Origin: Poseidonia sp. | GTDB lineage: Archaea > Thermoplasmatota > Poseidoniia > Poseidoniales > Poseidoniaceae | Assembly (NCBI GenBank): GCA_030827475.1 | Contig: JAUREJ010000003.1 | Coordinates: 6,648 to 70,647, forward strand | DNA: 64,000 nt | Direction: 5' to 3' | Shown here: positions 1-40,618 of the stretch, piece after piece | Numbering within the stretch: position 1 is the first letter of the stretch | Layout: each line of letters starts with the position of its first letter | Notes under the pieces: generated by a model | Told to the model about the DNA's origin: nothing | The model's database searches: none | The model's input: only the letters and a program-made list of their open reading frames with translations | Position numbers and translations under genes: made by a program

Positions 1-573
1 GTTCAAGAATTGAACAACCTGCCTCCTCCCAACACCGCTTCCTCGCAAGTTAACGCCTTGATCAACATCATGCAGTTCAGCATCGTTCAGGTTGAAGCCG
101 TTGAGCCCTTCGTCCAGTTGATGCCCAAGACCGACAAGAACTTCCAGTTCAAGGTGTACAACTTTGGCAACCAAATCGACCGAATGAAGATCGGTGTGAC
201 GGAAAACACGCGTGACACGCTCGAAGAGGCTGGCTTCACCGTCAACCTCCCACAAAACGTGGTCACCATTGAGCCAAACACCGCTCCAGAGACCGCTCGA
301 ATCATGGTCCGCACGCCAAAGAACCAGGGTTGGTCCGATGCTTATCACGTTCTGGAGTTCTACGCTGAATCCGAGTTTGCCTGCCAAAACGGAGGCTGCA
401 ACCGAGAGTCCCAGATGATCACGGTCTACGTTCGTGGCGTCTACCTTCCGGGCTTCGAAATCGTCCCAGCTCTCTCGATGTTTGCTCTTGCCGGCGCTGT
501 TGCCGGACGACGATTCCTCAACACCGAGGATGAAGAGGATCTTGAGTGGCGCGAAGCCGCTCCCGGCTTGTGA
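1..573 (+). CDS. 3' fragment of a secreted/cell-surface protein (gene continues upstream of the window); C-terminus has a PGF motif followed by a hydrophobic helix and RR (LPGFEIVPALSMFALAGAVAGRRF), resembling a PGF-CTERM-type anchor
   Basis: ORF track 10..573 in a frame open from nt 1; C-terminal PGF + TM + basic residues seen in the translation. Confidence 0.55.
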   Translation, partial: VQELNNLPPPNTASSQVNALINIMQFSIVQVEAVEPFVQLMPKTDKNFQFKVYNFGNQIDRMKIGVTENTRDTLEEAGFTVNLPQNVVTIEPNTAPETARIMVRTPKNQGWSDAYHVLEFYAESEFACQNGGCNRESQMITVYVRGVYLPGFEIVPALSMFALAGAVAGRRFLNTEDEEDLEWREAAPGL

Positions 574-663
574 CGCACGGTCACCAAACCGCCCCCTCCA
601 GAATCAACGAGGGGTTGCCTTCTTAACGCCAATCGTTAAACGGGTAAGCGACGGGGAAGGACC

Positions 664-1899
664 ATGGGTGGCCTGTTGGACAAAGCGAACGCGACAAAAG
701 AAGCCGTTATCGAAGATGAACCCGCACCGGTGGTCATTGCGAAATCTGAAGCAGCGAAAGCACCCTCGGACAATCCCGGCGTTCTTGTCGGTGGAAGCGG
801 ATCGGGCTCTCCCGACACCGCGACCAAGATGAGTTTGGCGGGTTGGGTCATCATTTTGGTTGGCGCCATTCTTTCCCTCCAGGGAGGTGCTTGGGGCTTT
901 GCCGTTGTTGCGGTTGTTGTCGTCCTCGGTGTCGGTGCCATCGTTCAGGCCGAGCGCATGCGAGGCAGCATCAACCAAGTCAAGCTCGGGGCAAGCGTCG
1001 TTGTTGCGTTGCTCATTGCAACCACGCCGTACGCCGCTGTGATGTTGGTGCCAACCAACGCCTCGATGGCCATCACCGATGTGGCTCTCAACGAAGACAC
1101 CAACCAAATCACGTTCAAGATTCGAGGGACCATGTCAAGCGTGGATGTCTCCATTGAAGCGGACGGTGTTGAGGTGTTCGCTGAATCGGCTTCCGTTTCC
1201 AACGATGTCAAAAATTTCAAGGTTGATATTTCCGATATTTTCCAAGGCAATGCTCGGAATTACGAGGGCCAGGAACTGATAGATTACGTCATTAAAGCAA
1301 CCGGGTCGGACGGCTCAAACGAAGAGGTGCTCATCAATCACGACTTGCTGGTTCGCGAGGCCATGAACGGGGGAGTTCGTTTTGCCCACGTCTTGGAAAC
1401 CACAGGCGGCGGAGGGTCCGGAGGTACTTCTTCGGACACCGAAGTCAAAGGCATTTCCATTGAGATTGCGGCCGGTGTGTATTCAGACAGCGAAACCAAC
1501 CGCAACGGAGGCGGCCACAGCATCTCAAGCGATATCAACTATCCTTTCATGAGCGGGGACTACACGGTCGATGTCAAAATCAAAAAGGACGGTGATCAAG
1601 AGTGGTCCCACAGCACCATTTCGGTTGACGGCGATACGGCATCGTGGTCCAGTCCGTCAGGCGGTTCCTCCGGCGGCTCCATGCGGGGATGGTTAGCGCT
1701 TTCAGGGGACGCCCAGAGTTCCACGGGAGTCGCTTACCTTTCGAAAGACTCATTCTACAGTGGCGAAGGTTGCTATGAGTTTGAGGTGAGCATCACAAAC
1801 GAGGTGTACGCCGACGGCCCAACCCAAGTCTTCTCCAACAGTTGGAAGATAGATTGGGATGGGGAAAATGACGAAGATGCCACCTACGACACTTGCTGA
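664..1899 (+). CDS. hypothetical membrane-anchored protein (about 3 N-terminal TM helices, Gly/Ser-rich acidic extracellular domain)
   Basis: 411-aa ORF; hydrophobic segments GWVIILVGAILSL and FAVVAVVVVLGVGAIV; no recognisable catalytic motif; TTAAAC TATA-like element about 25-30 nt upstream. Confidence 0.6.
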   Translation: MGGLLDKANATKEAVIEDEPAPVVIAKSEAAKAPSDNPGVLVGGSGSGSPDTATKMSLAGWVIILVGAILSLQGGAWGFAVVAVVVVLGVGAIVQAERMRGSINQVKLGASVVVALLIATTPYAAVMLVPTNASMAITDVALNEDTNQITFKIRGTMSSVDVSIEADGVEVFAESASVSNDVKNFKVDISDIFQGNARNYEGQELIDYVIKATGSDGSNEEVLINHDLLVREAMNGGVRFAHVLETTGGGGSGGTSSDTEVKGISIEIAAGVYSDSETNRNGGGHSISSDINYPFMSGDYTVDVKIKKDGDQEWSHSTISVDGDTASWSSPSGGSSGGSMRGWLALSGDAQSSTGVAYLSKDSFYSGEGCYEFEVSITNEVYADGPTQVFSNSWKIDWDGENDEDATYDTC

Positions 1900-2014
1900 A
1901 GCCAACGAACACATGCTTTGGCGGGTTCGCCCCTAACCGGTTCAGTGTCGTTTGGCTCGCCAAGCCGTCTCGTCTTGGATGTGAAGGTCGTGGATGCTCT
2001 CTGCTTCCGAGGCT

Positions 2015-3709
2015 TCATTGGTCTTTTTCCTCGTCCTCAACCGACGGCCTTTCGTCCATCGGTTTACTGAAGTCTTCCGGAGTTTTCTTGGATTGAGCCG
2101 AGATGTAAAGGGCGAGACCACCAAAGCCAACGAGGGCGACGATGAGGATGATGAGGGGGAACTCCTCCACCTCTTCTTCGTACGACCACGTCACGGGTTC
2201 AGAGGCTGCGCCTGCATCGTCGTGAACAGCGCCTGCAATGCCGTCCAGGGCGGTGGGCAGCAAAGGCTTGCACGTCAAGGTGGCTTCACCAGAGGTGTAG
2301 ACATACCACGTGAAGGGAATTTCCTTGGATTCGCCTGCCCCCAAACTCACGACCATTTGCGTGGTGTCGGCAATGTCTTCGCCCTCGTAACACCAGACGT
2401 TCACGCCCGAGGCAGCAGCGCTGCCGGTGTTTTCAACGGTCACGGTTCCGGAGACGCTCTTGTTGGCCACACCAACCGTTGTTTCCGGAGCGACGGCCGT
2501 GACGGTGATGTAGGGCAAGTCGAGTTCGATGGTCCCGGTTGAGGTGGTGGGGGCATCGATGGTTTTGGAGAACGTTCCCCAACTGCTGGAGATGGAAAGG
2601 GTGATGGTTGCCTCTTCTTCGTGAACCACGCCGTTGCCGTCCATCCAAGCCACCATGCGCTTGTTCTCGTTGGTCTCGCCCGGGCCAACGAGCACGATGT
2701 CTCCGTTGGCGTCCGTCAAGTCGTTCCAATCGTTGGCGTTGTAGCCGATGTTGTAGATGTCGAGGCTGCCGTTGGGAATGTTGGTGCTCAATGTCCGCTG
2801 AGAGAGAATTCGGACCCAAGCGTCGGTTGTGCCCCCGGTCCCTTGGCTGTTGGTGTACGTGATGCCGGCTTCGTCGTGAAGCACGATGTCTTCGTCCGTT
2901 CGAGACCCGCTGATGATGGAATTGAGGACGCTGACCGTGGATGTGCTGGCGGCGTGAATCGGTGCGCTTCCCGTCAGGCTGGTGCCGTCAAACGAACAGA
3001 TCGCAGCACACGAAATGTTCCCGCCGAGGATGGTGGAGCTCGTGACGGTCAAGTCGCCGTGGGCGTGAAGGTCGAAACCTGATTGGAACCAGTAGAGCGG
3101 TGCCTCGGAGGCGGAGATGTCTTGCGCAGGGATTGTCATCGTATCGCCTCCGCTGTGTATGGCCTTCGCCCAGAGCACGTAGGTTGGCGTGAAATAGGCG
3201 GTTTCAACGGAAATTTCCAGGTCGGTCCCGTTGAGCGGGACATCGAATTCAACGGTATCGGATCCTGAAGCGTTGACGGTGGTCTCACCGTAGGTGAAGT
3301 TGACTTTCACGCCGTCGGCGACGACGTGGTTGAGCTTGAGTTGGACAACGCCCGATTCTGCGATGTCACCGAAATTCAAAGTTAACACGGCAGGAACAAA
3401 ACTGTTCACTTCGACCCGGAGGCCAGCGTTCAGGTTTTCGCTGAGCAAGGCACCGTTGGTCAACACCAACTGGCCCCCATCTTCAACGGTGATGGAGGAC
3501 CCCGTCGCCATGGTGATGTTTGCACTCACGGTCAATGTGTTTCCGCTTTCAACCGTGACGTGCCCGTCCATCCTCGTGTCTTCAGTCCAGGCTTCGTTCG
3601 TTTGAACGGTGGTGCTGTCACCGTTTGACGGCGGACTGGCTGATGCGGCCATCGACGACATCAGAAGCAGGGTCATCATCAACAGGGCTCGGTAAGGTAG
3701 GTCTCGCAT
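2015..3709 (-). CDS. secreted cell-surface protein with C-terminal TM anchor (signal peptide MRDLPYRALLMMTLLLMSSMAASA; C-terminal FPLIILIVALVGFGGLALYI + KK)
   Basis: 585-aa ORF 2015..3772. Internal Met chosen because it is followed by a typical signal peptide. T/S/N/G-rich beta-rich composition typical of archaeal surface proteins. Confidence 0.65.
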   Translation of the reverse strand: MRDLPYRALLMMTLLLMSSMAASASPPSNGDSTTVQTNEAWTEDTRMDGHVTVESGNTLTVSANITMATGSSITVEDGGQLVLTNGALLSENLNAGLRVEVNSFVPAVLTLNFGDIAESGVVQLKLNHVVADGVKVNFTYGETTVNASGSDTVEFDVPLNGTDLEISVETAYFTPTYVLWAKAIHSGGDTMTIPAQDISASEAPLYWFQSGFDLHAHGDLTVTSSTILGGNISCAAICSFDGTSLTGSAPIHAASTSTVSVLNSIISGSRTDEDIVLHDEAGITYTNSQGTGGTTDAWVRILSQRTLSTNIPNGSLDIYNIGYNANDWNDLTDANGDIVLVGPGETNENKRMVAWMDGNGVVHEEEATITLSISSSWGTFSKTIDAPTTSTGTIELDLPYITVTAVAPETTVGVANKSVSGTVTVENTGSAAASGVNVWCYEGEDIADTTQMVVSLGAGESKEIPFTWYVYTSGEATLTCKPLLPTALDGIAGAVHDDAGAASEPVTWSYEEEVEEFPLIILIVALVGFGGLALYISAQSKKTPEDFSKPMDERPSVEDEEKDQ

Positions 3710-3810
3710 GATGAAAAGCAGAGGTGGCGGATGAATAAGCGTTCTTCCGTCCGCGGGTGGCGAAGAGCGCATCGCGAAGGGATTATGCGTTGCCGCTTCA
3801 TCCAGCAGCC

Positions 3811-5085
3811 ATGGAAGCAGCCTCGGTTTTGGTCGTTGGGAGCGGAGGTCGAGAACACGCCCTCTGCTTGGCTTTGAACGAATCTCGACGGGTTTCCGCC
3901 CTCCACTGTGTTCCGGGGAACGCAGGTACGGCCCTTCTCGCTACGAATCACGATGTTGGAGTGACGGAAAGCGAACTGATGCCGCTCATCGCATCGCTCA
4001 GCATCGATCTGGTTGTGGTTGGGCCCGAGGCCCCGCTTTGTGCTGGGCTTGCAGACGCTTGCGCAGCGGCCAATATTCCATGTTTTGGACCCGTCGCAGC
4101 ACTCGCCCATCTGGAGGGTTCAAAGCTGCACGCCAAAGAAACGATGCAAGCAGCAGGTGTGCCCACCGCCGATTATGTGCGCTTGGATGCCTCAAGCGAC
4201 GTGGAAGCAGCGCTCGATGCCTACTCAGGCAAGCCCTGGGTGGTCAAGAGGGACGTCCTCGCTGGAGGCAAAGGCGTGGTGGTGACGTCCGACCGAGAAG
4301 AAGCAAAAGCCTTCATCCATTCTTCTGTGGCCACCGATGGGTTTGTTTTGCTCGAAGCCTTTCTCCCTGGGGAAGAAGCGAGCATGCTCGTGGTCATGGA
4401 CGGGACGGCCTTTCGCACCCTTCCAGCCAGTCAAGACCACAAACGTGCTTACGACGGGGATGAAGGCCCCAACACGGGTGGCATGGGTGCATATTGCCCC
4501 GCTCCGGTGGTGTCGCAGGCCGTCCACGCTCGCATCGTTGAGCGCATCGTTGAGCCCATGCACCGCCACCTTGCCTCCCAACCCGTGCCCTACCGAGGCG
4601 TGCTCTTCATCGGGCTGATGATCGATGATAACGACGACCCTTTCGTTGTTGAGTTCAATGTACGGTTCGGCGATCCAGAGTGTCAAGTGACGCTTCCGTT
4701 GCTCAAGACCGACGTTTTTTCGCTGCTTTACGGGGCCGCTACCGACGAGCTTCATACCGTGGAACTCAACGTGTCCGATGAAACGGCGGTGACGGTGGTT
4801 CTGGCTTCGGAAGGCTATCCCGCCTCCCCCTTCAAGGGGCGTCGGTTGGATGGCCTTGAAGCGTGCATTGCCCGTTCAAAATACGGAATTGCTTGGGTCA
4901 ATTTTGCGGGTGTTGGCCTCGCAGATGACGGCGAATACATCGCCACCGGAGGCCGGGTTCTCTCAACAACTGCACAGGGAGCGAACCTCCAATTTGCACG
5001 AGCGAATGCATACGAAATGATGGACCAAATTTCCCTTCAAGGAGGCCACTTCCGGACCGATATAGGTCACCGAGCCTTGCCGTGA
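3811..5085 (+). CDS. purD: phosphoribosylamine--glycine ligase (GAR synthetase)
   Basis: N-terminus [16 protein letters not shown]-grasp body and C-terminal GGRVL motif; the ORF track extends to 3757 but the family N-terminus starts at MEAAS. Confidence 0.9.
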
Positions 5086-5232
5086 TTTCTTTAAGAATGA
5101 AAGTCGCCTCGGAGCATCGTAAAGCGCAGACTGGGGCACAATGCCGGGTCGTGTGTTCCATTATCTTCAAAAGGGGTTCAGAAGTGGCCAACGACGCCAG
5201 CCTTGAGGCTGGACCGAAATTGAGGGATAGAA

Positions 5233-8200
5233 ATGGAAGAACATACGGAAACGACGGCAAATCAGCCCGGCGCCATCATGGGGTTGCTGCTCGCACCCTT
5301 GGCCGTGCTGCTTGCTCTTGCCACCACCCGAGTCGTGGGCATTGAATACGACTTGACATTGAACAACATGATGCCGATGCTCGTCGTCGCCATCGCCAGT
5401 ATGCTGGCTCTCGTGCCACGCATCGTTCAGGACGCTCGACCCGAATTCGCCTCTTCCACCCTTTCCCTCGGCGTGCTTGCAATCGCGTTCTTCGGTGCTG
5501 AGGTGCTCCACTCCTTCTTGGGCGTTGACGCTCTTGCTGCGCTGATGTTTGCTGTTCTTGTGGTTTTGGGGTCAAACTTTGACCGCCGTGGGCGCCACGA
5601 GTGGGTCGCCATGATGACCTTCTCTGGCGTTGGGTTTTGGCTCGCCCTCGCTGCGGCAGGGGATGCCCTCGCTGCGCTCCCCTCAACGTACACGATGGAG
5701 AGCGGCCAACTCGTCTCGACCATGAACCTTGAGCGTCAAGCCACGGCTTACGTCTTCTTTGCTTACTGGACGATGTTCACGGTCGTAGGCGTTTTGGCTG
5801 GCGTGCTCGCTCGAGGCACGGTCAACCCCGCAGGCGCTGAGGGCTGGTTTGCCTTCCTCGGCCAACACGACGGTTTCAACCGCGCCAACCTGCCGCTCGT
5901 CATCGCCCTCGTCGTTTGGGTGCTCGCCTTCGTTGGCTCCTTGTTCCACTTCAATTCGGTGGACACGATTGACCAGTTGGCCATCACCACCGAAGCAGGT
6001 TACCACGGCTACATCGGCTACTGGACGGCATTTTTGACCGGTTTAGTGGCTCTCATCGTCGCCGGCATGTGCGCCGAGCGATGGTACACCCGCGCCATGC
6101 TCGTGGGTTCCATGTGGGGACTTTACCAAGTCGCTGCTTGGTTTGAAGCCGGTATTTGGTACAACGAAGACATGGACGGCACATGGGGTGCGCTGATCTG
6201 GCTCGGTATCACGTTCTTTTTGGGCGTGGGCATTTACTCCATCGGCAACCACGAAAAGTACGGTGGATGGGCTAACCTTGGCGAGCACGAGCCCTCTCAG
6301 GCTCGCCTGTTCCTCCGGGCACACGGAGCGGGCTTGATGATCGCTCTTGCCTTCTTGGTCGGCCTTGCCATTCGAATTCAATGGTACGCCGTGCCCTCAA
6401 TGAACGCCTTCGGAACCGGAAACTGGGACATGACGGGGGGTTCGGACCCTTGGTACATGAAGCGCGTGGTTGATTACATCCTGGCAAACAACGCTCACTT
6501 GGTGTTCGATGCCGACCGATTCTATCCCATTGGCGGCATCAACCCTCGTCCCCCGCTCTTCTCATGGACCATGGCCATCGGTGCGATGTTCTTGGAGCCC
6601 TTCCTCAACACGCCTGAAGATGCTGTTTGGTGGAGCATGCTCGCTCTACCCGCTGTCTACGGTGCGCTGACCGTGTTCCCCATCGCCATCATCGCCAAAG
6701 ATCACTTTGGAAAGGGTGCAGGCGTCATCGCAGCATGGCTCATCGCCTTCATGCCCGCTCACGTCACCCACTCCACGTGGGCGCTCGCTGACCACGACTC
6801 CTTTGTGATGCTCTTCATCTCGGTCGGCTTCTTGTATTGGCTGCGTGCGGTGAAGTACGCTGGCTCGGCTCGAATTACAAAAGTCACCACGGCGCATCCA
6901 AAGTCCTTCTTCCAGGCTTACCTGGACGTGCTTGCACACCGTCAGGCAGCCGTCGCCAACGCCGTGCTCGCCGGTGTCGCCTTTGGTATCGTTTCCCTGG
7001 GTTGGAAAGGGTTCGTTGTTGGGCCATCGATTTTGTTCCTCGCCTATGCCTTGCAGGTGGCCTTGAACATGTTCCGCCGAAGAGATTCAACCACGCTGAG
7101 TGCGCTTTTCCTCACGATGCTTTTGACGACCTTCCTGATGGCACTGCCCTTCTACGGTCACCCGGAATTCGACTTGATTCTCAACCCCACCGGGCTGCAA
7201 CCCTTCCTGTTCATTTCCGGATTCACCCTGGCCATTGCCTTCGTGACCACCGGATTCCGTGACAAACCTTGGTTGCTCGTGCTGGGCACGCTGGTTGGAT
7301 TGGCCGCAGTCTTCTTCATTCTGCTGTACATCCTCAAGACATTGGAACTCTCAAACGCATGGGATGTCCTGTTCACGGGAAGCGGTTACTTCACGAAGAC
7401 CAAGATTTTCGGTACGGTTGCTGAAGCCAACGCTCCGAACCGAGCCCAACTCTTTGCTTCCTTCGGACCCATCACGTTCTTGCTTGCGCTCATCATCGGC
7501 GGCGGGCTGCTCTGGAAGGGTCTTCGATATCGCAAAGGCACGGAACTCGTGTTCGGTGTTTGGGTCTTCGCAGCCACCTTCATGGCTTGGAACGCTGCTC
7601 GGTTCATGTTCAACGCCACTCCCGTGATGGCCGTTCTCGGTGCTGCGGGTATCGTTGCACTTTGGCAGTGGGCCAACTGGAGCGGTTTGGTTCGTTCGTG
7701 GAAGAAATTCGGCATCCGAACCCCAGCTGACCGCATCACTGGCGCACGAAAGGCCGTTTGGCGGACGCCACAATTCTCGGCGATTTTCCTTGTCATGATC
7801 ATGATTTTCAGCCAACAAGCCACCTACGGCTTGGACTCTGCGATCCCCGGGACTTCGAACCAAGAGGGAGAAATCGACGAGCGAATCTACAACGTCGTCC
7901 CCGATATCCTGCGTTTTGATGCCCTAGGTTTCTCGGTGCTCGACAGCAGCAACTACGACGGTCGTTGGTACTTGGGCAGCTTTGGTTCTTCGTTCAACGA
8001 TAACGGTTGGAACGCGGCGTACGAATGGCTCGCCAACCAAGATACGGACATGAAGTATTCAGAAAAGCCGGCCTTCGTATCGTGGTGGGACTACGGTTTC
8101 CAAGCCATGAGCACCGGTGAGCACCCGTCGGTATCGGACAACTTCCAGTCCGGCATCCCGGCAACAGGGAACATGCTTTTGGCACGAAACCAAGATGACC

Positions 8201-11200
8201 TGACAGCGATGTTCATCTGGCAGCTTGCGGAAGGCGACCGTACCTACGCAACCACCGACAATTCGAACCACAAGTTCACGCCGACTTTCCAGAACACCGT
8301 GGACAAGTACCTCAACGACGCACAGATGGAGGACTTCGTGACGATGCAAACCACGTTTGACGAGACCATGATCGACTTCATTGAACTCCGTTCGTTCAGC
8401 GTCGTGAAGGCCAACCGAAACATCGTGATGGCGGAGGGACACCCCTCCACCGCCGGTGTCTTTGATGCTGACACCACGATTTACCGCATCTACAAAGACG
8501 GCGTTCCCCTCCCATGTACTGAGGAATTCTCCTCTTCCTGTTTGGGTGATGCTTGGTCGTCCATGAGCGAGGCCAACATCACGTTCACGAACAACATCCG
8601 CACACCGGACGAAACTGTCAATGGACGGACACACTCCATCTTTGGCGATTACTGGTACACGGCAGACCTCATCGATGAGTACCTTTCGGTCTCGACCAAC
8701 ATCCACCGAACGAACGCCCGATTGGCCATGATGACGCAACTCTTGACCGAAGCCTTTGATGCCCACCCAACCGCCACCATCCACGACCTCTACAACGACC
8801 TCATCGGCTTGGAGGGCCTTTACCGTGTTCAAGACTACGAAGGCAAACCCGGAGAGACCATTTCTCGTGACCACGAGATTCGGTATTTCGCCATCGATGA
8901 CCGACTCTACCCTCGCGCGGGGCGCTACACAGCTGACTCGAATTACAACCGTGGCCAACCGATGGGCATTTTCGGTGCCCCAACCATCCTTTCTGGACAA
9001 GACATCGGGACGTACATGGACGAGGTTTACGAGACCGTCCGCGGCGACTTCCAAGACGAGATGACGCGAGAAGAGGTTGACGAAGCCATGCAGAAGGATT
9101 TCCTTAACCAGCAAGCTGGGGCCGATATTGACCCGTTGCAGATTCAGGACGTCCGTGTTGATCACAACCCTGCCTTCTTCGACACGATGGTGGCTCGCAC
9201 CTACGTCGGCTACGGGGCTTCAACGCTCGGAATCAACACCGCAGCCAGCAACCCACAGCCGGCGCAACACTTCGGTCAGTCGGGTTCACCCGGCAGCGTT
9301 CTGGCAAACTCCTTGCCGCTGCCTGGAGCCATGATGAACCATTTCGTCATCTCCAACTGGTATTCGGAAGACGAAACGGTCAGCATTCAATCCACCAACA
9401 CCTTGGTGAAGATTCTGAAGTACTACCCCGGTGCAGAATTAACCGGTCAAGTGACGATGACCGATAACGGCGAGGGTCTGCCAGGCGTTCGCATCCTCAT
9501 TGAGCGCGATGCCTTCTCCGGCGAAGGCTCATCGGACAACGATGAGGACACCTATTGGATTCCCATTGGCTTTGTCGATGCGGATGACGATGGGAAGTAC
9601 AGTTTCCTCGCACCTGCTGGACGACTTCGCGTGACCGCCTTTGCCGGGGATTACGACCCAAGTGAGGCTCGTGACAACCTTCGAGACGGCTCGTATGCAG
9701 AACGATTGAGTGACATTTTGACCGACACCAACGACGACCGACAAATCAACGAAATCACGGCCATCCTCGGCCAAGTCGCCAACATGAGTTGGCTCGGAGA
9801 AGCCCAACTCAACGTGACGGCCGACCAAGCCAATCGCGTGGTGCCCATGGACCGGACCCTTGATGTCTCCATTGAGAGCAGCGGTGTGTCCGGTACCGTG
9901 ACCTGGAGCGGCGATGAAGCGTTCAACGGTGATCCGATTGCTGAAACCACGTTCATCCTCCGCAACATCTGGTCGATGACCGACAACTACACCGTCGTCA
10001 CCACCAGCGGTTCGTTTACTTCGGAGGAATCCCGTATTCTCCAAGGTACGGGCGAAGCAACGCTCACCGAGGACGGTTCATTTGACAGCGAAGGCATTGC
10101 ATTGGCCAAGAACTTCATCGGAGATTTCACGCGCGATATCGGAAACGAGCGTTCCTTCTTCGCCAACGGCACATGGAACGGAAACGGTTTGCTGGAAGCC
10201 TCATGGGTGGGCGTTGAGAACATCACTGCCTGTGAGGCCGACAACACCTCAAACGCCGTGATGCCCGCTAACGAGACGATTTGCGTTGTTGATGCAACCA
10301 CCACTCCACCAACCTACCGGTTGGAAGGAACGGTTGACGCTCAGGGGACCTTCACATCCGAGGGGACCTCCACGCTGACGCGTACCTATGGCGATGCAGA
10401 TGCAGGCCAGGGTGAAACGATTGAAGGCGCAGGTCTCTTTGAAGGGACGGGAACATTCAACGGGACCGGTCTGTTCATCGGTGTAGGAACCTTCTCTGGT
10501 CCGATGGTTGAACCCGGTTCTTTCTACAAGACCGGCTTGCTGCCCGGCACTTACAACATGATTGCACAGTTGGCCAACGGCAAGGAAGTACTCCTTCCTG
10601 ACCCCGTTGAAATCGGCGTTGTCCCCTCGTTTGATTTGCGCATGAACATGCCGGGAGCCATCTTCACCGACATCCTCTCCAACATGGTCGGCGACGGTTT
10701 GGCAAACACCACGATTGAACTGATTGACCGAGACCTTGGCGAGGACGCTGCAGTTTACATCGTAACGGATGAATTGGGTAACTTCTCCTACGGGCCCGTT
10801 GCAAAGGGCGACTACTACTACCGTGTGGACGTCGACGGAGACGGGTACTACGACCTCAACGAATCGGTCATGGTTCTCGATGACACGACCAACATCAGCC
10901 TTGCCATGGGTGTACCGGATACCGTCGATGTCACCATGACGTTGATCTCTCCCGTTGACCCGTTGACACAGGAACCGCTCTTCGATGTGTCAAACCGAAC
11001 CATTACCTTCGAAAACACTGAAGGAATTTTGCAACCGATGAACGTCACTTCGGACGAAAACGGGGAGCTCTCTATCGAGTTGCTTTACGGTGTTTGGGAT
11101 GTTCGAGATGACGCCAACCCGGACTTTGTTCTGTTTGACCAAGTTGACCTTTCACCAGGAACTGAAAACATTGTGAAGGACGTGACCTATGCTCAAGCCG

Positions 11201-16122: not shown

Positions 16123-16230
16123 ACCGTTCTCCGCTTTAGAGTCATTTTACGGAAGTATATTCCCTGAAAAGGGTAAATGAAATGATATTCTTACGTCATT
16201 ATGATACGGTAAGAGCGGCGATTGAGGCGC

Positions 16231-27890: not shown

Positions 27891-28077
27891 GCGAACAACT
27901 CGGAGCGGTCGCGGAGGATTCTTGAACACACCGACAGAACCTGACGGTATCGGATGTTTTGGCGGACTTTCGCACGACGTCAAGGTGTGCGTGTATGAAC
28001 AATGTTCCATCACCCTCATAAGCAATCTGAGCAAGGTATTCTTTGAGCGAAGCGTATGCTTTGCAGCAGGCGAGAAC

Positions 28078-33828: not shown

Positions 33829-33890
33829 CGCCCGCAATCATCTGACCTTGAACCGCATGGTTCAAATCGTAGGTCGGCTGTCTTTAGATT

Positions 33891-36800
33891 ATGCAGGGCG
33901 GCGAACAGCATACACTCGGTACTCGCAGCATTTTCTTGTTGCTGGTCAGCCTCATGTTCCTCACGCCGCTTGGCCCCTTTGCCAACATGATGGTGACCGA
34001 GGCTGATGCGGCTGCGGGCACGCGTCACGTCTACGTGTTCAAAGACGGGTCAACCGAACACATCGCTCTCTACCAAGGAGCCAATCCCGACCTTGGAGCC
34101 ATGGTTGAACTTCCACGAGGTGCTTTGGTGACCGACGTCACCATGACCCTTTCCGGCGCTTCCGCCACGGGATGGTCGCAAGTCGTCGCCGATGACCGCG
34201 TCCACTGGGTTCGTGGCGCTGCGTCCGGGACGGATGATCGCAGCGGAGATTTGACCCTTGCACTCTCCAACGTCACTCGCAACTTCCTCCCGCACGGAAA
34301 CGACGCTTACATCCATCCCAATTCCGATGCGTGGTTGGACAACGGTTCCTATGCCCTCCGCCAACCGCACACTTCCAACGCAACGGAAACCCTCTTCTCC
34401 CAGCAACTGACGAAGACCTCTTCATCGTTTATGGCCCAAAGCCAAGGTGCTATTCTCAAGCATCACGATTGGTTGTTCCTTTCCACGTGGTCGTCTTCGA
34501 ATTTCCACAACGTGGTGGAGCGTCTTTACCCAAACAACGCGACCCGCGAATCGGTCATCACGCTTGAGCAGGCTTCGTGCACCTTGCCTCAGAAACACTC
34601 GTCGTCGTACTACGCCTATTACGGGTTCCGTGATTGGACCGTGACCGATGATGAACGTTTGTTTGGTATTCTCTCCGGATACCGCTACTCCTACGGTTCC
34701 ACGGCTCCTGTCAACTATCATCGCGTGATGGAAATGGACATCTCTCGTGACGACACGTGGACCTGCATTGATTCCTACGACATCTCACCGTCGGTCGGTG
34801 AATACACCGGGATTGCTTACGACCGGGACACCGGTAAGGTTTGGGTGGCGCACAACGCCATGAACCGGCTCTACGCTTACGATTTCGCTGGAGATGGAAC
34901 GTCTACTTACACCCGCAGTCAAGAATTCTACACCTACACCTCGTCCTCCAGTTCAACCTGGGAATGCGGTGGCAGCACGTCGAACAACCAGAAGCAAATG
35001 CTAAGGGGCTTGGAAGTCAACGGCTCGACCTTCTACATGCGATGCCAGAAAGACTACTACTACGACGACCGGGACCAACTTGAGGCCTGGTCGGTTTCGG
35101 GTTCTTCCTCTGCCCTCATTCCCGAGTCAACCGTCCGCCAGATTTCCCGACTTGGGTACGGCTTGCAATTTGACGGCGAGCGCTTTGTCACCGTCGACTG
35201 CGGTTATTCAACGTGGTCCGGTGCCACCCTGTACTACCGCGAGTTTGGAACGGGATGGCTCTACGAAACAACACCGTCGCCGGGAACGACCACGTGGTAC
35301 GGTGACGTGATCAAAACAGGCGACCCCGTTTTGGCTGCGAACGTTCAGACCTACTGGTCAGCAGCTTCCATCGGTGACCGCGTCGACTACTGGGTCTCTG
35401 CTGACAACGGAACACACTGGGAAGAAGTGGAATCCAACTCGACCATTCACTTTGACTACCCCGGTACTGAATTGGTGTGGAAGGCCCAACTCATCGGCTC
35501 CACTGCGGTGTCGTGGTGGGTTGACATGGATTATGCAACGGCCTATTCTTCACAAGGTGATTGGACCTCCCCATACTTCAACACCGGTACCAAGGTCGGA
35601 AAAGTCCGTCCGCAGTGGACCGCAGATGTTCCTGCTGGAGCCACGCTCACGGTCCAAGTCTCAAACGACAACGGAACCACTTGGTTGGACGCTACAAACA
35701 ACGCAGAAACGAGTTTCTCGACCGAAGCAGCCGGGAACACGCTCCGCTATGCCGTGGTGATGGGAACCAACGATGCCACCAAGACGCCCAAACTTGACCG
35801 CTTTGTTCTGGAGTATGAGGAAGGATACCCAGACCGCCCCATGCTTGATGTTGGCGGTGACGGGACGTACGATTGGGAATCCGATATTTTCCTCAACGAG
35901 TCTTCTGTGGTGGCTTCCGATGACTCGCCGGTCGGTGAAATTGTGAAGAGGGCCCCAACCCTTGTGGATGCCTTCAACGACCACATTCCCGAAAACGGGG
36001 ACGGCATGGTGACCATTCCAATTGGCGTGAAGGCAGCAAGTGCTGGCCGTGTGAAAATTTCCAACATCGACATCACCTATGCCATGCAGACACGCGCCGT
36101 GGACGCCTCCTTTGAGGGCGGCCTTGCCGCTCCGGACGGTGTGTTCAGGAACTTCATCACCCGGGTGGCTCCGGGCGACGATGTTGACCGAGTCACGAAG
36201 GCGGTGGTCGCCATCGACCACACCTACGGCGAAAACCCTTCGTTCACCTGGGAGCGAGGCGATGTTTGCTCGGTCAATTCGGACGGTGGTGGCATTGTCA
36301 TCTTTGACGCCACCAACTGCACATCAACGGTCAGTGCCAACGACGTGGTCTCCATTTGGATGCCGACAAAGGTGAACTGGAGCTGGAACGACGAATCGAG
36401 TACGGAAGCCATCATCTCGGTTGAGGACGATTTAGGCCCCTCCGTGAGCCAGTGGATGACCTCGGACATGAAACTGGTGGTTGAGAACGACATCCAACTG
36501 GACGGCCTGCGTGTCTGGGAAGAAACCGGCCGGCAACTCTACCCGATGGATTGGGTCCGTGGAGGTTTCAATCTCAGCTTCACCGGCTCCATCCACTTCC
36601 AAGACTCACAACTCATGCCTCCAGCGGGAAGTTTCTCCCTGCGCGTCATCGGCCAAAACGTGACCTATGATGGCGACCCGATGGGCGAACCCATGGTGCT
36701 CTATGAAGAGGTGAACCCGGCTTTTGGGGCCTACAACATGACCTTCACTTCACCCATTGAATCCGCTCCGGGAGGGATGATTTTCTACGTTCAAGCCGTG

Positions 36801-39338
36801 AACCTTGAAAACGGCTCAACCTTCACCAACCCCACCTACAACAGCATTCGATTGATTCTCGACGGCAATTCTCCACTCGTGCTCAGCGCTACCCCGCTCG
36901 ATGGTACTGAACGCCATGCTGGTGCTCCCGGGGTCGGTCAAGCTGTTTCCATTGTGGTCCAAGATTCGGTTGACCCGCCGCGCCAACTGAACCTTCACTA
37001 CTGGGTTGGATGCAAGGCAAGCGATGCCATCGGTTGCACGGATTACAACTTTGATGGGCTCCCCAACGAAGACGAGTACGAATTGGTCACCCTCTCCTCG
37101 CCGGAAACACGTACCGGTGGCCTCAACATCTTCGAAGGTTTGATCGACGATTCCATGCTTCTGCATCGCCAGCGAGTTTCGTTTTACGTCTCTGGCGAAG
37201 ACGAGCAAGACAACCAGATTGCGATGGGCAAAGGACCCGTTTGTCCAGTCTCGACCATCACCTGCGGCTCACGGCCGGGTGAAGTGGTTCCCGATTGGGA
37301 TGCAGATTTGGTCACCTACCACATTCGTCAAGAATTTGAACCCGAGGTCGACCTTGGCAACACCTCAATCCTTGGGCATGACGACTACGAACCCCTCCAT
37401 CCAGGCATCCCTTACACGGCGCAAATCAAGTTGAGCGACACGAATGGATGGCAGGACATTCAGTATGTTCAAGTCGCCCTTGGAGGCGATTTCGACGACG
37501 ACGAATCCTCGTTGTTCATCTCCCTTGCCGAAGGGCAAGACGGTCATCCCAAAGCGGTGATGACCCCGGGCTCGAGCAACATCGCAGTCTCCAACCTGTA
37601 TTCCACGGTTGCACTGGAGGAAGGTGACGACTCCGTAGTGGTCATTCAAGCACGCTTCCAGTTGACATGGATGTTCCCCGAATCCTTCGATACAAACGGT
37701 GTCAGTCACTTCCTCCCCCGTGTCAAAGTGACCGATATGCCTTGCAACGAGAACGAGGTAACACCTTGTTTCGAGATCATGGAAGGGATGGGCGACGATT
37801 GGTGGAGCCTAGACAACGATTTCCGCTTTGATACGGAAGCAGGACACATTCGGGCAATTGAACTTCGGAACAGCGAGAATCACTACAACGAAGAAAATTC
37901 GGAAACCATCATCGGAGCAGGTCAAGCCCTCCGTGTTTCAGGGCGGGTCTTGTTTTCAGAAGACGAAACTCCAGCCCCTCCCGGTTCCTTTGATGTCGTG
38001 TTTGGAGATTTCGAAAACAACTGGAGGACCTCGACACGGGATGACGGTGAGTTCAGTCTCGATTTGCTTGTTCCTTCTGTCCGTTCAGGCCGCTTGGACC
38101 TCCGCTTGAGCATGGATGATCTGCCCGGTTTGGCCCTTGATGAGAGCGAATTTTCGCCTCGGGTCCGCCTCGCTGTTGACAGTTCACGGCCAACCATTGA
38201 CAGCATCTCTCTCGGTGGAGTGCCCGTTGGTTCCCCGATCTCAATCGGGGCTGCTGACAACCTCGAGGTGATTCTTGTCACCAATGACGAAAACGGGTTT
38301 GACTTCGATGAATCCGCTGTCCTTCACTATCGCGTGAGGGCCGGTGAAGCAGAGATTTCTCGGGGAAGCGTTCTGCTTCCCGACATCACCAGTTTCGGCC
38401 AGGAGTACTTCTGGAGCGGCAGGTTGGATTTGACGGATTCAGGCGCAACGACGCTGCTGCCGTCCTACGCCGTTGATGTTTGGGTTTCGGGCTCGGACAA
38501 AGCCGGAAACCCCTTCGACACCCTCGACAATTCGATGATGGAACCGTTTGCCTCATGGCCGCTTGCACTGCTCGGTCCTCGCATTGATTTGCAGCACGAA
38601 GCGTCCAATCTTCAGTGGGACATTCCGTCTCCTTACGAAGGCGAAACTGCAACGTTGGTCGTTGAAACCGAGAACCTTGGCGGAAACGGCTTGGTTGAGT
38701 ACGCCCTTCAAAAATTGGTTGAGGGTGGATTCTGGTCCACCGTTCAAACCGTCAGCGTTGAAGCGACAGCTGGAGCGACCGTGACGGCTGCCCTGCCGGT
38801 GACTCCCGAGGAAAGGGCTGGGTCAACCATCGAGTACCGAGTGTTGGTCTTGGTAGACGGGGTTGAGATGGATCGTGCTATCGTCGCCTCGTTGTTCATC
38901 AAAGAAGAAACGGTTCGTGACGGAGAAGCGCTCACGCAACAGCTCTCCAGCGATGTCTTCAGCGTGACGTTGTTCGTCATCGCTTTGGCTTCCGTTTCTT
39001 TCGGAATGTACGCCCTCGTGCTTCGTCGTCGTTTGCTCGCTCCTGAAACGGAGGAAGAAATGGCGGATCAAACGGATGTGGTGGCCGAAGAGATGGCTGC
39101 AGGGAAGACAGTTCCAACGATACAGGCTCCGCCTGCTCCGCCGGCTCCGGCAGGGCAGGTGCCGCCACCGCCTCCGGGTGCGAAGGTCCCACCAGCTCCT
39201 CAACAAGCACCGGCAGCACCCGGCCCTGACCGAAGTTCCCCCCCTCCCGTACCCCCAACAGGGCTTCCTGAGGGATGGACCCAAGAACAGTGGGACTCTT
39301 ACGGTTGGAAGTACATTGATGCCCTCGCCAAGAAGTGA
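33891..39338 (+). CDS. giant (1815 aa) cell-surface protein: signal peptide, long beta-rich extracellular domain, C-terminal TM helix (VFSVTLFVIALASVSFGMYALVL+RRR) and proline-rich cytoplasmic tail (PPAPPAPAGQVPPPPPGAKVPPAP ... PEGWTQEQWDSYGW)
   Basis: Uninterrupted ORF; topology read from hydrophobic segments. Confidence 0.8.
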   Translation: MQGGEQHTLGTRSIFLLLVSLMFLTPLGPFANMMVTEADAAAGTRHVYVFKDGSTEHIALYQGANPDLGAMVELPRGALVTDVTMTLSGASATGWSQVVADDRVHWVRGAASGTDDRSGDLTLALSNVTRNFLPHGNDAYIHPNSDAWLDNGSYALRQPHTSNATETLFSQQLTKTSSSFMAQSQGAILKHHDWLFLSTWSSSNFHNVVERLYPNNATRESVITLEQASCTLPQKHSSSYYAYYGFRDWTVTDDERLFGILSGYRYSYGSTAPVNYHRVMEMDISRDDTWTCIDSYDISPSVGEYTGIAYDRDTGKVWVAHNAMNRLYAYDFAGDGTSTYTRSQEFYTYTSSSSSTWECGGSTSNNQKQMLRGLEVNGSTFYMRCQKDYYYDDRDQLEAWSVSGSSSALIPESTVRQISRLGYGLQFDGERFVTVDCGYSTWSGATLYYREFGTGWLYETTPSPGTTTWYGDVIKTGDPVLAANVQTYWSAASIGDRVDYWVSADNGTHWEEVESNSTIHFDYPGTELVWKAQLIGSTAVSWWVDMDYATAYSSQGDWTSPYFNTGTKVGKVRPQWTADVPAGATLTVQVSNDNGTTWLDATNNAETSFSTEAAGNTLRYAVVMGTNDATKTPKLDRFVLEYEEGYPDRPMLDVGGDGTYDWESDIFLNESSVVASDDSPVGEIVKRAPTLVDAFNDHIPENGDGMVTIPIGVKAASAGRVKISNIDITYAMQTRAVDASFEGGLAAPDGVFRNFITRVAPGDDVDRVTKAVVAIDHTYGENPSFTWERGDVCSVNSDGGGIVIFDATNCTSTVSANDVVSIWMPTKVNWSWNDESSTEAIISVEDDLGPSVSQWMTSDMKLVVENDIQLDGLRVWEETGRQLYPMDWVRGGFNLSFTGSIHFQDSQLMPPAGSFSLRVIGQNVTYDGDPMGEPMVLYEEVNPAFGAYNMTFTSPIESAPGGMIFYVQAVNLENGSTFTNPTYNSIRLILDGNSPLVLSATPLDGTERHAGAPGVGQAVSIVVQDSVDPPRQLNLHYWVGCKASDAIGCTDYNFDGLPNEDEYELVTLSSPETRTGGLNIFEGLIDDSMLLHRQRVSFYVSGEDEQDNQIAMGKGPVCPVSTITCGSRPGEVVPDWDADLVTYHIRQEFEPEVDLGNTSILGHDDYEPLHPGIPYTAQIKLSDTNGWQDIQYVQVALGGDFDDDESSLFISLAEGQDGHPKAVMTPGSSNIAVSNLYSTVALEEGDDSVVVIQARFQLTWMFPESFDTNGVSHFLPRVKVTDMPCNENEVTPCFEIMEGMGDDWWSLDNDFRFDTEAGHIRAIELRNSENHYNEENSETIIGAGQALRVSGRVLFSEDETPAPPGSFDVVFGDFENNWRTSTRDDGEFSLDLLVPSVRSGRLDLRLSMDDLPGLALDESEFSPRVRLAVDSSRPTIDSISLGGVPVGSPISIGAADNLEVILVTNDENGFDFDESAVLHYRVRAGEAEISRGSVLLPDITSFGQEYFWSGRLDLTDSGATTLLPSYAVDVWVSGSDKAGNPFDTLDNSMMEPFASWPLALLGPRIDLQHEASNLQWDIPSPYEGETATLVVETENLGGNGLVEYALQKLVEGGFWSTVQTVSVEATAGATVTAALPVTPEERAGSTIEYRVLVLVDGVEMDRAIVASLFIKEETVRDGEALTQQLSSDVFSVTLFVIALASVSFGMYALVLRRRLLAPETEEEMADQTDVVAEEMAAGKTVPTIQAPPAPPAPAGQVPPPPPGAKVPPAPQQAPAAPGPDRSSPPPVPPTGLPEGWTQEQWDSYGWKYIDALAKK

Positions 39339-39345
39339 GGATTGA

Positions 39346-39792
39346 TTGAACGTGGCTGACACCCCCGTTGACGGCATGGTTACGCTTCAAGAGCGTACCG
39401 TGAACTTGGTGAATCAGCTCAACATGCCTCTGGTTGAAGTGTCGCTGGTTCTTGCTCGTCATATCAATCGGCTCATGCAAACCTTGACCGAACATCTCGA
39501 TGCTACCGGCCAGTCCGTGAGCGACCGTGTCTCGCACCCATGGCCTGTGGAGGTTGAGGCGGCAGATTCTTCGTCAAATTTCCCGCTCGACAAGGTAATG
39601 GATATTGTCGACCAACAGCGAATGGACATTCTGGACACGCTGATTCGTGTCACTTTGGTTGAAATCAATGCCTCGGTCATTGACGCCTTGCTCGCGCTTC
39701 GGGCTTGGGAACATCTTGCTCGTACGCAGTTGGCGCTTGCGACCGGACCGGGACAATTGTTTTCTCCGTTGGAGATTCCAGAGGACTGGTGA
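39346..39792 (+). CDS. small acidic helical cytoplasmic protein, hypothetical; starts 8 nt after the giant gene's stop
   Basis: 148-aa ORF, no TM, compact genomic position suggests co-transcription. Confidence 0.5.
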   Translation: MNVADTPVDGMVTLQERTVNLVNQLNMPLVEVSLVLARHINRLMQTLTEHLDATGQSVSDRVSHPWPVEVEAADSSSNFPLDKVMDIVDQQRMDILDTLIRVTLVEINASVIDALLALRAWEHLARTQLALATGPGQLFSPLEIPEDW

Positions 39793-39829
39793 GCAAGGGC
39801 TTCAAAAACGAGGGCGGGGAGGTGGTGTC

Positions 39830-40618
39830 ATGACCCATGCTCGTCAAACAGCCCTGGTCCTCGTTACGCTGCTGCTGTTGGTGCCGTCCTCGGGGTGCTT
39901 GGGCGAAGATGGTTTGCGGGTTTTTCCCGAGAAGAAAGGTGTTCCAGGTGGGCTCACCTTGGCGTGTTTGCGGGATGGCTCCTTCACGTCGATGGTGATT
40001 GAGATCGATCATGCCCCCGGTTATCGACCGTACACCAGTTCAACGGACCTCTTGGTGGAGAGGTTGGAGCAAGTTTGTGAAAAACCCGGAGGTATTCGCA
40101 TTCAATACAACGAAGTCTCGTTTGTCGAACAGGCCTCATGGAGCGCCCAAGATGTTCGGGATGAAGGTTGGGAGAACAAAGACGTCTCTCCCATGGACGG
40201 GAACACGCTTCGATGGCAGATTCTTTTCCCAGAGGGGACTTACGAAGACGAGAGCGTTCTCGGCGTTGCCGTGGATGCATCGACCATGGCGCTTTTCAGC
40301 GATGCGATTGAGGAAGCCGACGGCTTGTTTGGACGCCCCTCTGTTGAAGACGTTGAAAACAGCGTCATCGTCCATGAGGCAGGGCACCTGCTCGGGCTGG
40401 TCAACCTCGTCTACACCTCTCCCGTGGACCATGAAGACCCGGATCATCCCGGTCATTCAAACAACGACGAATCCGTCATGTATTGGGCCATTGAATCCAC
40501 GGGACTGAGGAACTTCATCACGGGCGATCTACCCACGACGTTCGATGACGATGATTTGGCGGACCTTGCAGGATTGGCGAGCGGCGACATCCCTGTACGT
40601 GATCAACTCTGGCCTTGA
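39830..40618 (+). CDS. secreted zinc metalloprotease-like lipoprotein (signal + lipobox-like LVPSSGC; HEAGHLLGL zinc motif)
   Basis: HExxH with Gly at +3 after the second His; GGAGGTG Shine-Dalgarno-like sequence 5 nt upstream of the ATG at 39830. Confidence 0.65.
   Translation: MTHARQTALVLVTLLLLVPSSGCLGEDGLRVFPEKKGVPGGLTLACLRDGSFTSMVIEIDHAPGYRPYTSSTDLLVERLEQVCEKPGGIRIQYNEVSFVEQASWSAQDVRDEGWENKDVSPMDGNTLRWQILFPEGTYEDESVLGVAVDASTMALFSDAIEEADGLFGRPSVEDVENSVIVHEAGHLLGLVNLVYTSPVDHEDPDHPGHSNNDESVMYWAIESTGLRNFITGDLPTTFDDDDLADLAGLASGDIPVRDQLWP

Follow-up and report, generated by a model that had tools for sequence, protein, structure and literature searches.

Archaeal AglB is usually treated as a compact, single-subunit oligosaccharyltransferase (OST), and AglBs transfer lipid-linked glycans to sequons (N-X-S/T). 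In Haloferax volcanii, the surface glycoprotein csg is an acidic chain of Ig-like beta-sandwich domains that has numerous N-glycosylation sites and is anchored in the membrane at its C-terminus, and a PGF-CTERM/archaeosortase signal is found in many euryarchaeal S-layer proteins. In eukaryotes, the ribophorins, OST48/Wbp1, and NOMO are type I membrane proteins whose beta-sandwich luminal domains lie beside STT3 or the translocon. Here we analyzed a 64,000-nucleotide (nt) stretch of DNA from Poseidonia sp. (GenBank assembly GCA_030827475.1, contig JAUREJ010000003.1, positions 6,648 to 70,647 of the forward strand), which is referred to as the window and whose own numbering is used throughout. 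A gene at 5233 to 14808 on the plus strand encoded a predicted AglB of 3191 amino acids (aa), with a Pfam match to STT3 and a WWDYG motif; we called this protein the giant AglB. The Poseidoniales, or Marine Group II archaea, rank among the most abundant surface seawater microbes; we know of no cultured member and, to our knowledge, their cell envelope is uncharacterized. The best sequence and fold match to the giant AglB was AglB-L of Archaeoglobus fulgidus (AfAglB-L; 3WAJ/3WAK/5GMY/7E9S). Both had a 13-helix GT-C core, an Asp in external loop 1 (EL1), a DxD/DxH motif in EL2, a TIXE-type motif, and WWDYG, whereas the crystallized AfAglB-L chain comprised 875 residues rather than 3191. On balance, we judged it probable that the region was a conserved, vertically inherited envelope biogenesis neighborhood centered on a giant AglB that carried its own glycoprotein tail. 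This reading was built on demonstrated homology, catalytic motifs, architecture, sequon statistics, and conservation.

The sequence comparisons placed the 3191-aa protein firmly in the STT3/AglB family. The Pfam STT3 domain was located at aa 392 to 654, and AfAglB-L (3waj) aligned with aa 363 to 808 (phmmer E = 6e-7; E = 6e-9 with a 28-sequence profile). In addition, the WWDYG region aligned with the structures 3vgp and 3vu0, which are C-terminal domains of AglB. An AlphaFold (AF2) model of aa 1 to 1200, with a predicted local distance difference test (pLDDT) score of 63.8, was compared to known structures via Foldseek. The best 16 PDB matches were all AglB or STT3 with a probability of 1.00, led by 3wak, 7e9s, 5gmy, and eukaryotic STT3.

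The EL1, EL2, and TIXE catalytic motifs were defined as described for AglB (PMC8342417), and their conservation was scored across 28 homologues. D405 in the EL1 motif GGSDPWY aligned with D47 in GGNDPWY of AfAglB and was invariant. The EL2 DXD-type motif, A-D520-H-D522, aligned with N-D-H-H of AfAglB, and D520, H521, and D522 were invariant. Similarly, the EL5 TIXE-type motif, T728-V-A-E731, aligned with TIAE of AfAglB, with T728, A730, and E731 invariant, and WWDYG at aa 951 to 955 was invariant as well. As judged from the homology, the motifs, and the model, the 3191-aa protein is an STT3/AglB-type OST with a complete 13-helix catalytic core, which we assigned to aa 356 to 870 (6298 to 7842, plus strand) using Pfam, motifs, and fold. 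By analogy with other AglBs, sequons exposed on the outer side of the membrane would receive the lipid-linked glycans that it transfers. The earlier note on this DNA had placed the giant proteins on either side of the OST and had given all of them signal peptides; the OST proved to be the 3191-aa giant itself (STT3 at aa 392 to 654, WWDYG at aa 951), and this giant was polytopic and had no signal peptide.

Could the 3191-aa open reading frame (ORF) be an assembly or annotation artefact that joined an AglB gene to a surface-protein gene, or could the enzyme be catalytically dead? The ORF was shorter in three of the 62 complete cases among metagenome-assembled genomes (MAGs), at 1447, 2002, and 2693 codons, which spoke for an artefact; in all three, tail sequence was still found downstream, the pattern expected from frameshift errors. 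In the other 59, which came from independent assemblies, the frame was uninterrupted and spanned at least 3100 codons. Moreover, more than 230 clusters of 1900 to 3230 aa shared the same architecture, including the AglB of a complete isolate genome, Aciduliprofundum sp. MAR08-339, and the invariance of all the catalytic motif residues argued against a dead enzyme. Long or near-identical DNA repeats were absent from positions 1 to 40000, where the only repeats were diverged TSP3 motif repeats with 60 to 77% identity, so collapsed repeats, for which the earlier note had allowed, were unlikely and misassembly was rejected. Taken together, these data made an artefact or a dead enzyme extremely improbable.

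The catalytic core was flanked by regions that set the giant AglB apart. At the N-terminus, an extension of 355 aa (5233 to 6297, plus strand) contained about 10 membrane helices, which the AF2 model placed at aa 16 to 338 with a pLDDT of 70 to 85 and which were also seen in the Kyte-Doolittle (KD) profile. The extension had no Pfam match. Its similarity to the STT3 core was undetectable with hhalign, so that no duplication of the core could be recognized in it. The extension was specific to Marine Group II; elsewhere in the Thermoplasmatota, the core began at aa 10 to 150. On the other side of the core, an external globular domain (aa 871 to 1400; 7843 to 9432, plus strand) contained WWDYG and gave a weak AglB_core-like match. 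An insertion at about aa 1000 to 1200 of this domain was weakly conserved, and the block at aa 1201 to 1400 showed 76 to 84% column identity.

The external globular domain was followed by a sequon-rich chain of predicted beta-sandwich domains, the tail (aa 1401 to 3160; 9433 to 14712, plus strand). Pfam and an iterated hidden Markov model search detected at least six prealbumin/CarboxypepD_reg-like domains in the tail by sequence. Specifically, there was a Pfam match to CarboxypepD_reg and a weak NOMO1-like match, and the C-terminal end of the tail was CARDB-like. The last segment (aa 3161 to 3191; 14713 to 14808 with the stop codon, plus strand) contained a transmembrane (TM) helix at aa 3162 to 3180, followed by the basic tail KVSRGGRRGKF. 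Because the C-terminal domain of STT3 faces outward, the tail would be extracellular and tethered to the membrane at both ends. Column identity stayed within 40 to 77% along the full lengths of the tail and of the 1815-aa protein described below.

The tail carried 43 sequons compared to 17.2 expected by shuffling, a 2.5-fold excess (z = 7.0), and the catalytic 1400 aa of the same protein carried 3 compared to 7.3 expected (z = -1.8). Eight of the tail sequons were kept in all 22 aligned homologues over which positional conservation was scored, and most were kept in more than half of them; the number of sequons per tail among homologues ranged from 33 to 58. An excess was also observed in the TSP3-repeat giant described below, which had 27 sequons compared to 14.9 expected (z = 3.5). 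These sequons and their conserved positions predict that the AglB tail is probably heavily glycosylated. If so, the tail would be one of the main substrates of the enzyme to which it is fused, and the glycosylated tail would form part of a protective, interactive glycoprotein coat. The neighboring surface proteins would be likely AglB substrates too.

Rather than forming a structural coat, the tail and the other giants might be adhesins or might bind particles, algal polysaccharides, or other cells, with the AglB tail merely presenting its binding domains on a platform in the membrane. Prealbumin/CarboxypepD_reg, CARDB, beta-helix, and TSP3 domains are all common in adhesins and carbohydrate-binding proteins, and the thrombospondin genes that are widespread in the Poseidoniales were read as adhesion factors from KEGG Orthology (KO) annotation (Rinke et al. 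2019, PMC6461757). However, the AglB tail and the 1815-aa protein were conserved over their full lengths, and the length of AglB was near-fixed at 3150 to 3230 aa across two families, features that a structural role explains better than a rapidly evolving adhesin would. The tail would also be tethered at both ends. We therefore considered the adhesin explanation unlikely.

To place the giant AglB in a broader context, the AglB core was searched against 1.8 billion cluster representatives. This search identified a second large AglB group with 29 to 37% core identity, lengths of 2000 to 2800 aa, and a core near the N-terminus. Its members included a protein of 2081 aa encoded by the complete genome of Aciduliprofundum sp. 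MAR08-339, as well as proteins from Methanomassiliicoccus, from Methanomassiliicoccales MAGs (about 2150 aa), and from many Thermoplasmata/Thermoplasmatota MAGs. The contigs came from many different samples, and the database names were automatic ("STT3 domain-containing" or "carboxypeptidase regulatory-like domain-containing" protein). A C-terminal TM helix was present in 234 of the 236 giant AglB relatives; in about 100 relatives whose tails were examined, the helix was followed by a basic end, and most of these tails were sequon-rich. The giant AglBs found elsewhere in the Thermoplasmatota thus shared the core family, the CarboxypepD_reg-like tail, and the C-terminal TM helix with a basic end, but they were about 1000 residues shorter and lacked the N-terminal extension and a subtilase (S8) neighbor.

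With regard to C-terminal signals, no PGF was found in the giant AglB of the window. A PGFE sequence followed by a hydrophobic helix and a basic end was observed in 12 of the 236 relatives (P0425, P0281, P0289, and 9 others), and these endings resembled the archaeosortase signal of S-layer glycoproteins. They scored below the curated NCBIfam cutoffs, and PGF-CTERM was rejected as a general AglB ending.

A CARDB-domain gene accompanied AglB inside and outside Marine Group II. Outside, the gene immediately downstream of AglB on the same strand encoded a protein of about 250 aa that combined a signal peptide with a CARDB domain and a TM helix at the C-terminus. This was the case in 36 of the 45 testable metagenome loci (among L089 to L164), as well as in Aciduliprofundum and Methanomassiliicoccales (L169:16243-17016; L170:16483-17253). 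In Marine Group II, by contrast, the CARDB gene was larger and was located upstream of AglB on the opposite strand. A comparison of the 585-aa CARDB protein of the window with the small one gave E = 1.4e-5, a value not separable from generic CARDB similarity. By its position and domain, the small CARDB protein is a candidate noncatalytic OST partner. The gene purD was also often found about 2 kb from AglB outside Marine Group II, and it was at most a few kb away in L098, L099, L105, L106, L112, L113, L118, L133, L135, L149, and L170; this linkage is long-lived, and its functional basis is not obvious. The S8 gene had been considered as an ancient AglB partner; this idea was rejected, as no S8 gene closer than 10 kb to AglB was found in lineages other than Marine Group II.

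This distribution across the phylum indicates that both the tail of AglB and the linkage between AglB and CARDB are old Thermoplasmatota features, on which Marine Group II elaborated with the N-terminal extension, the added tail length, and the neighboring S8 and beta-helix genes. A bolder proposal is a true enzyme-substrate fusion, in which the glycosylated AglB tail is a principal building block of the coat, either an S-layer-like layer or a glycocalyx, the CARDB protein is a noncatalytic partner of the enzyme, and Marine Group II enlarged the system with an extra membrane domain and a longer tail and added a dedicated membrane protease and the other giants. We regarded the proposal in this full form as rather unlikely. 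If it were true, some archaeal OSTs would have more than one subunit.

Within Marine Group II, the AglB region was strongly conserved. The best genome match, at 97%, was to a Poseidonia sp. MAG, and there were at least 120 full-length AglB homologues of 3150 to 3230 aa. A cluster with 47% identity (3148 aa) included a member of the Thalassarchaeaceae, and therefore the 3.15-kaa form is shared by the two families of Marine Group II. Synteny was surveyed in 80 GTDB species genomes, with 53 to 65 testable cases depending on the gene. In every testable genome, purD was upstream of AglB (64/64), the CARDB gene was upstream on the minus strand (53/53), the S8 gene was directly downstream (65/65), and the beta-helix gene followed the S8 gene (60/60).

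The downstream half was compared in metagenome contigs with 51 to 60% protein identity and in one MAG contig with 89% identity. In loci L001 to L005, the beta-helix gene was followed by the STAND gene and then by the start of the pilin-like operon. In L006 and L008, the pilin-like genes, the metallo-beta-lactamase (MBL) gene, the TSP3 giant, and the 1815-aa giant were found in the same order as in the window, and these loci continued collinearly with the pyroglutamyl-peptidase/NUDIX gene, the family-2 glycosyltransferase (GT2) gene, the Zn-ribbon protein, DnaJ, the 740-aa protein, and DUF5591. Locus L007 had the same layout, except that the TSP3 giant was called as two genes and the GT2-DnaJ stretch was called differently. 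The counterparts of the TSP3 giant in relatives were 1762 to 1895 aa and occupied the same position. One further locus (L013, NZEQ01000036.1) carried the Marine Group II purD-AglB-S8 block with 83% identity and was deposited as "Verrucomicrobiales bacterium isolate ARS100", a label that is likely a binning error.

The earlier note had interpreted positions 1 to 40000 as an island of giant proteins dedicated to the envelope and host interaction, reminiscent of the giants of Nanohaloarchaeota/DPANN symbionts and of halomucin. The envelope part of this interpretation stood: extracellular or membrane-anchored proteins filled about 34 of the 40 kb, and the block contained AglB. The proteins were also large, acidic, and extracellular, as a dedicated and possibly acquired host- or symbiont-interaction island would suggest. 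The isoelectric points of the surface proteins ranged from 4.05 to 4.4 compared to 5 to 6.5 for the housekeeping proteins of the window, which bore out the acidic character noted before. In contrast, the host interaction part found no support, as the close homologues all belonged to the Poseidoniales, a planktonic group. The best 120 AglB homologues and the best 120 homologues of the 1815-aa protein were all from marine metagenomes or MAGs, and the named ones among them were assigned to Poseidonia, Poseidoniaceae, Poseidoniales, or broader taxa (Euryarchaeota, Thermoplasmatota). None of the homologue searches returned a protein from Haloquadratum, from Nanohaloarchaeota/DPANN, or from any other halophile; the homologues were all uncharacterized proteins rather than ordinary haloarchaeal S-layer paralogues of known function.

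The block was not purely made of giant proteins either, since purD and the MBL-fold hydrolase gene were located inside it. Gene order was invariant in all testable species genomes, GC content was uniform (0.53 to 0.59 across the window), the window contained no tRNA genes, and there were no integrases or transposases among the Pfam matches of its proteins. Together with the absence of long repeats, these findings led us to reject a genomic island of flexible or acquired DNA, and they made an island for host interaction very improbable. The region is core, vertically inherited Marine Group II (Poseidoniales) chromosome.

Inherited synteny could by itself explain why the giants are neighbors, and they would then be independent surface proteins that form no unit beyond AglB. 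Several of our results weighed against the envelope biogenesis reading, and the first two directly favored this explanation. The whole 64-kb window was collinear in relatives, including the interspersed genes for purD, the MBL hydrolase, and, farther along, DnaJ, GluRS, RNase HII, and PheRS beta; because these housekeeping genes were equally collinear, conserved order alone is no proof that the giants act together. In addition, the S8 and beta-helix neighbors of AglB were specific to Marine Group II. The synteny of the downstream half rested on three to six contigs only, and sequons were only weakly enriched in the 1815-aa protein (16 compared to 12.0 expected; z = 1.3) and not enriched in the beta-helix giant (12 compared to 14.7 expected; z = -0.8). 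As for the enzyme, the AF2 model was moderate and was poor around the catalytic loops and at aa 837 to 982; the latter region was modeled badly because the cut at aa 1200 precedes the conserved block at aa 1201 to 1400. No alignment reached the region of the DK/MI motif (Ser/Thr pocket), which was not placed confidently; "IDDRLYPRAGRY" at about aa 1222 to 1233, inside the most conserved block, was picked as a candidate by eye only.

Other data argued against inherited synteny as the sole explanation. Four genes of more than 1400 aa were located inside 34 kb, and same-strand spacers were short (53 nt between AglB and S8, 28 nt between the beta-helix and STAND genes, and 62 nt between the TSP3 and 1815-aa genes). 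The AglB-CARDB link persisted across the phylum, and one Methanomassiliicoccales locus also contained a beta-helix giant longer than 2000 aa (cut by the end of the locus), 3.7 kb downstream of AglB. The synteny explanation therefore seemed possible but doubtful. Under the envelope biogenesis reading, the segment would encode much of the envelope machinery and material, with a small number of housekeeping genes interspersed. The S8, beta-helix/Ig, TSP3, propeller/Ig, CARDB, and three pilin-like proteins would be further components of the coat; the processing of such components may fall to the S8 protease, and their regulation to the MalT-like STAND protein.

The genes around AglB were analyzed individually. 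The ORF lengths of 3191, 1473, and 1815 aa in the earlier note were exact, and the giant that it counted as 1917 aa had 1916 aa; of its two ORFs of 585 to 806 aa, the smaller was located upstream of AglB, and the larger (806 aa; 56857 to 59277) was outside the first 40 kb. C-terminal TM anchors were present, as it had described, in the 3191-, 1473-, 1815-, and 585-aa proteins and in the product of the 5'-truncated gene, and calcium-binding repeats were present in the 1916-aa protein. The truncated gene (1 to 573, plus strand), which is cut by the start of the window, was the 3' end of a gene for a surface protein of the "choice-of-anchor T" family (NCBIfam NF041740, 155 bits; cutoff of 70). 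Its product contained a PGF/Heimdall-CTERM-like segment, LPGFEIVPALSMFALAGAVAGRR, that scored 17.2 bits with Heimdall-CTERM, below the cutoff of 24. This sorting-like segment was not terminal and was followed by an extra acidic tail of 20 aa. Next was an acidic membrane protein of 411 aa (664 to 1899, plus strand) with hydrophobic helices at aa 54 to 129 and no family match, which was conserved upstream in related loci wherever the contig extended that far.

In the 585-aa CARDB protein (2015 to 3772, minus strand), which was a type I membrane protein, Pfam placed the CARDB domain at aa 431 to 500 (E = 4e-9); a C-terminal TM helix at aa 540 to 558 and a short acidic tail followed. Because its orthologues were 548 to 565 aa, its true start is probably M22, with a signal peptide from there. 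Between this gene and AglB was purD (3757 to 5085, plus strand), which encoded the phosphoribosylamine-glycine ligase (442 aa; Pfam GARS_A, GARS_N, and GARS_C), a housekeeping rather than an envelope protein.

Downstream of AglB, the S8 gene (14862 to 16073, plus strand) encoded a membrane-anchored subtilase of 403 aa. Its Peptidase_S8 match was strong (119 bits; cutoff of 21.8), and its triad was intact (D117/H152/S329 in DTG117, HGT152, and GTS329), with the catalytic domain at aa 108 to 386. The protease had been described as lacking a propeptide, and we found no propeptide domain; an N-terminal cytoplasmic segment was followed by a TM/signal anchor at aa 57 to 75 instead. In a comparison with NCBIfam, the protease scored far below the cutoff (mycosin-like).

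The beta-helix giant (16276 to 20697, plus strand) was a type I membrane protein of 1473 aa. The mechanical ORF started with TTG at 16222 and would yield 1491 aa, and the ATG at 16276 yielded a classical signal peptide. The protein contained a right-handed beta-helix (Pfam Beta_helix E = 1e-16), Ig-like Big_7 domains, and a TM helix, and its cytoplasmic tail ended in the conserved sequence QHPGWLWDxExNxWVPDPNY. The next gene (20723 to 23248, plus strand) encoded a MalT-like STAND regulator of 841 aa. In agreement with the STAND NTPase reported before, it had a helix-turn-helix (HTH), an AAA_16 domain (36.8 bits; cutoff of 32.6), and TPR repeats (TPR_12, 83.6 bits); the HTH_Crp_2 match was weak, and the score with the NCBIfam MalT-like model was far below the equivalog cutoff. 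Orthologues of 840 to 841 aa occupied the same position in related loci.

Three overlapping pilin-like genes (159, 744, and 361 aa; 23256 to 27048, minus strand) followed. With regard to the pilin operon of the earlier note, the genes overlapped by 4 nt, the N-termini (…ERAVSEVLGVVMLLAMVI…) resembled archaeal class III signal peptides by eye, and an orthologue had a DUF7266 match. The domain matches themselves were below the cutoffs (Pilin_N, 19.3 bits with a cutoff of 25.2; DUF7289, 24.8 and 21.6 bits with a cutoff of 27), and the window contained no gene for a pilus assembly ATPase or PilC. There was no NCBIfam equivalog for the CARDB, pilin-like, beta-helix, and 411-aa proteins. The MBL-fold hydrolase gene (277 aa; 27057 to 27890, minus strand; Pfam Lactamase_B_2) was interspersed among the surface-protein genes, and its position was conserved.

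The last two giants of the block were encoded side by side. The TSP3-repeat protein (1916 aa; 28078 to 33828, plus strand) was predicted to be secreted: it had a signal peptide but lacked a membrane anchor, and its central region was rich in beta structure; the mechanical ORF, which started at 27847, would yield 1993 aa. It contained 11 strict DxDxDGxxDxxE calcium-binding motifs, or 19 under a relaxed definition, and 9 diverged DNA repeat copies. The Pfam TSP3_bac score of 23.9 bits was slightly under the cutoff of 25. The 1815-aa protein (33891 to 39338, plus strand) was a type I membrane protein with no Pfam match and at least 120 full-length homologues, all of them in the Poseidoniales. Its AF2 model (pLDDT of 72) was all-beta, with propeller-like and Ig/FN3-like domains. 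No function was assigned to it, since a sequence search of the PDB returned nothing and the Foldseek matches, to propellers and Ig/FN3 folds, were all generic and had low TM-scores. A TM helix at aa 1692 to 1710 was followed by a Pro-rich cytoplasmic tail that ended in the conserved sequence PPTGLPEGWTxEQWxxYGWxY. The 1473- and 1815-aa proteins were unrelated, but both ended in Trp-rich motifs (PxGW…W…) after a Pro/acidic linker (tails at 20560 to 20697 and 39200 to 39338). These motifs looked WW/DUF2510-like, and their shared occurrence suggests a common cytoplasmic docking partner.

The surface protein-rich character of the region extended past 40 kb, given the proteins of 740 aa (45840 to 48062), 684 aa (51851 to 53905), and 806 aa, all of which had a signal peptide or TM segments. 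Zinc-ribbon motifs were located C-terminal to TM segments in two membrane proteins (43711 to 44664 and 51851 to 53905, both plus strand). In a single ORF (40944 to 42101, plus strand), domains of a pyroglutamyl peptidase (C15) and a NUDIX hydrolase were fused, and this fusion had the same position in L006 to L008. The membrane-associated GT2 (42613 to 43674, plus strand), whose position was conserved in L006 and L008, had no equivalog assignment; it may be part of the lipid-linked glycan pathway that feeds AglB. DnaJ, GluRS, RNase HII, and PheRS beta were among the further housekeeping genes downstream.

A literature search that did not cover the main AglB surveys found no description of AglBs of this size with a sequon-rich, doubly anchored tail and a CARDB neighbor, so a prior mention is possible; it also found no account of this architecture in the Marine Group II envelope. 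A specialist in glycosylation would find the giant AglB surprising. A phylum-level group carries AglBs of 2000 to 3200 residues with a doubly anchored tail and, usually, a conserved small membrane partner, and cultured members (Aciduliprofundum and Methanomassiliicoccus) have the 2-kaa form, which makes the role of the tail and self-glycosylation directly testable. In the case of Marine Group II, the block provides concrete envelope candidates, which might act as surface antigens, as receptors for viruses, or in attachment to particles; existing metaproteomes and metatranscriptomes can be searched for them. The OST transcript was reported to be enriched in an active MGIIb population (PMC9723583).

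Among the known systems, halomucin of Haloquadratum and the giants of Nanohaloarchaeota/DPANN resembled the proteins analyzed here in being very large, acidic, extracellular archaeal proteins. However, their domains, organisms, and ecology were different, and the genes described here were core and syntenic. The 1916-aa protein is probably one of the "thrombospondin genes" reported by Rinke et al. (PMC6461757), to which our analysis added its size, its fixed position beside the 1815-aa protein, and its sequon enrichment. The AglB tail resembled csg of H. volcanii and other euryarchaeal S-layer glycoproteins in its beta-sandwich chain, sequons, and C-terminal anchor. Unlike these glycoproteins, it had no PGF-CTERM, and no sequence homology between the two was found; moreover, csg is a separate Sec-exported protein, whereas the tail belongs to the same polypeptide as the enzyme by which it would be glycosylated. 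The likeness to the eukaryotic OST subunits and NOMO was at the level of fold family, with no evidence of common descent, and here STT3 itself carried the beta-sandwich domains, except for the CARDB protein, which was encoded beside STT3. Compared to AfAglB-L, the closest match, the giant AglB added about 10 N-terminal helices, an insertion of about 200 aa after WWDYG, a sequon-rich beta-sandwich tail of 1760 aa, and a second, C-terminal membrane anchor.

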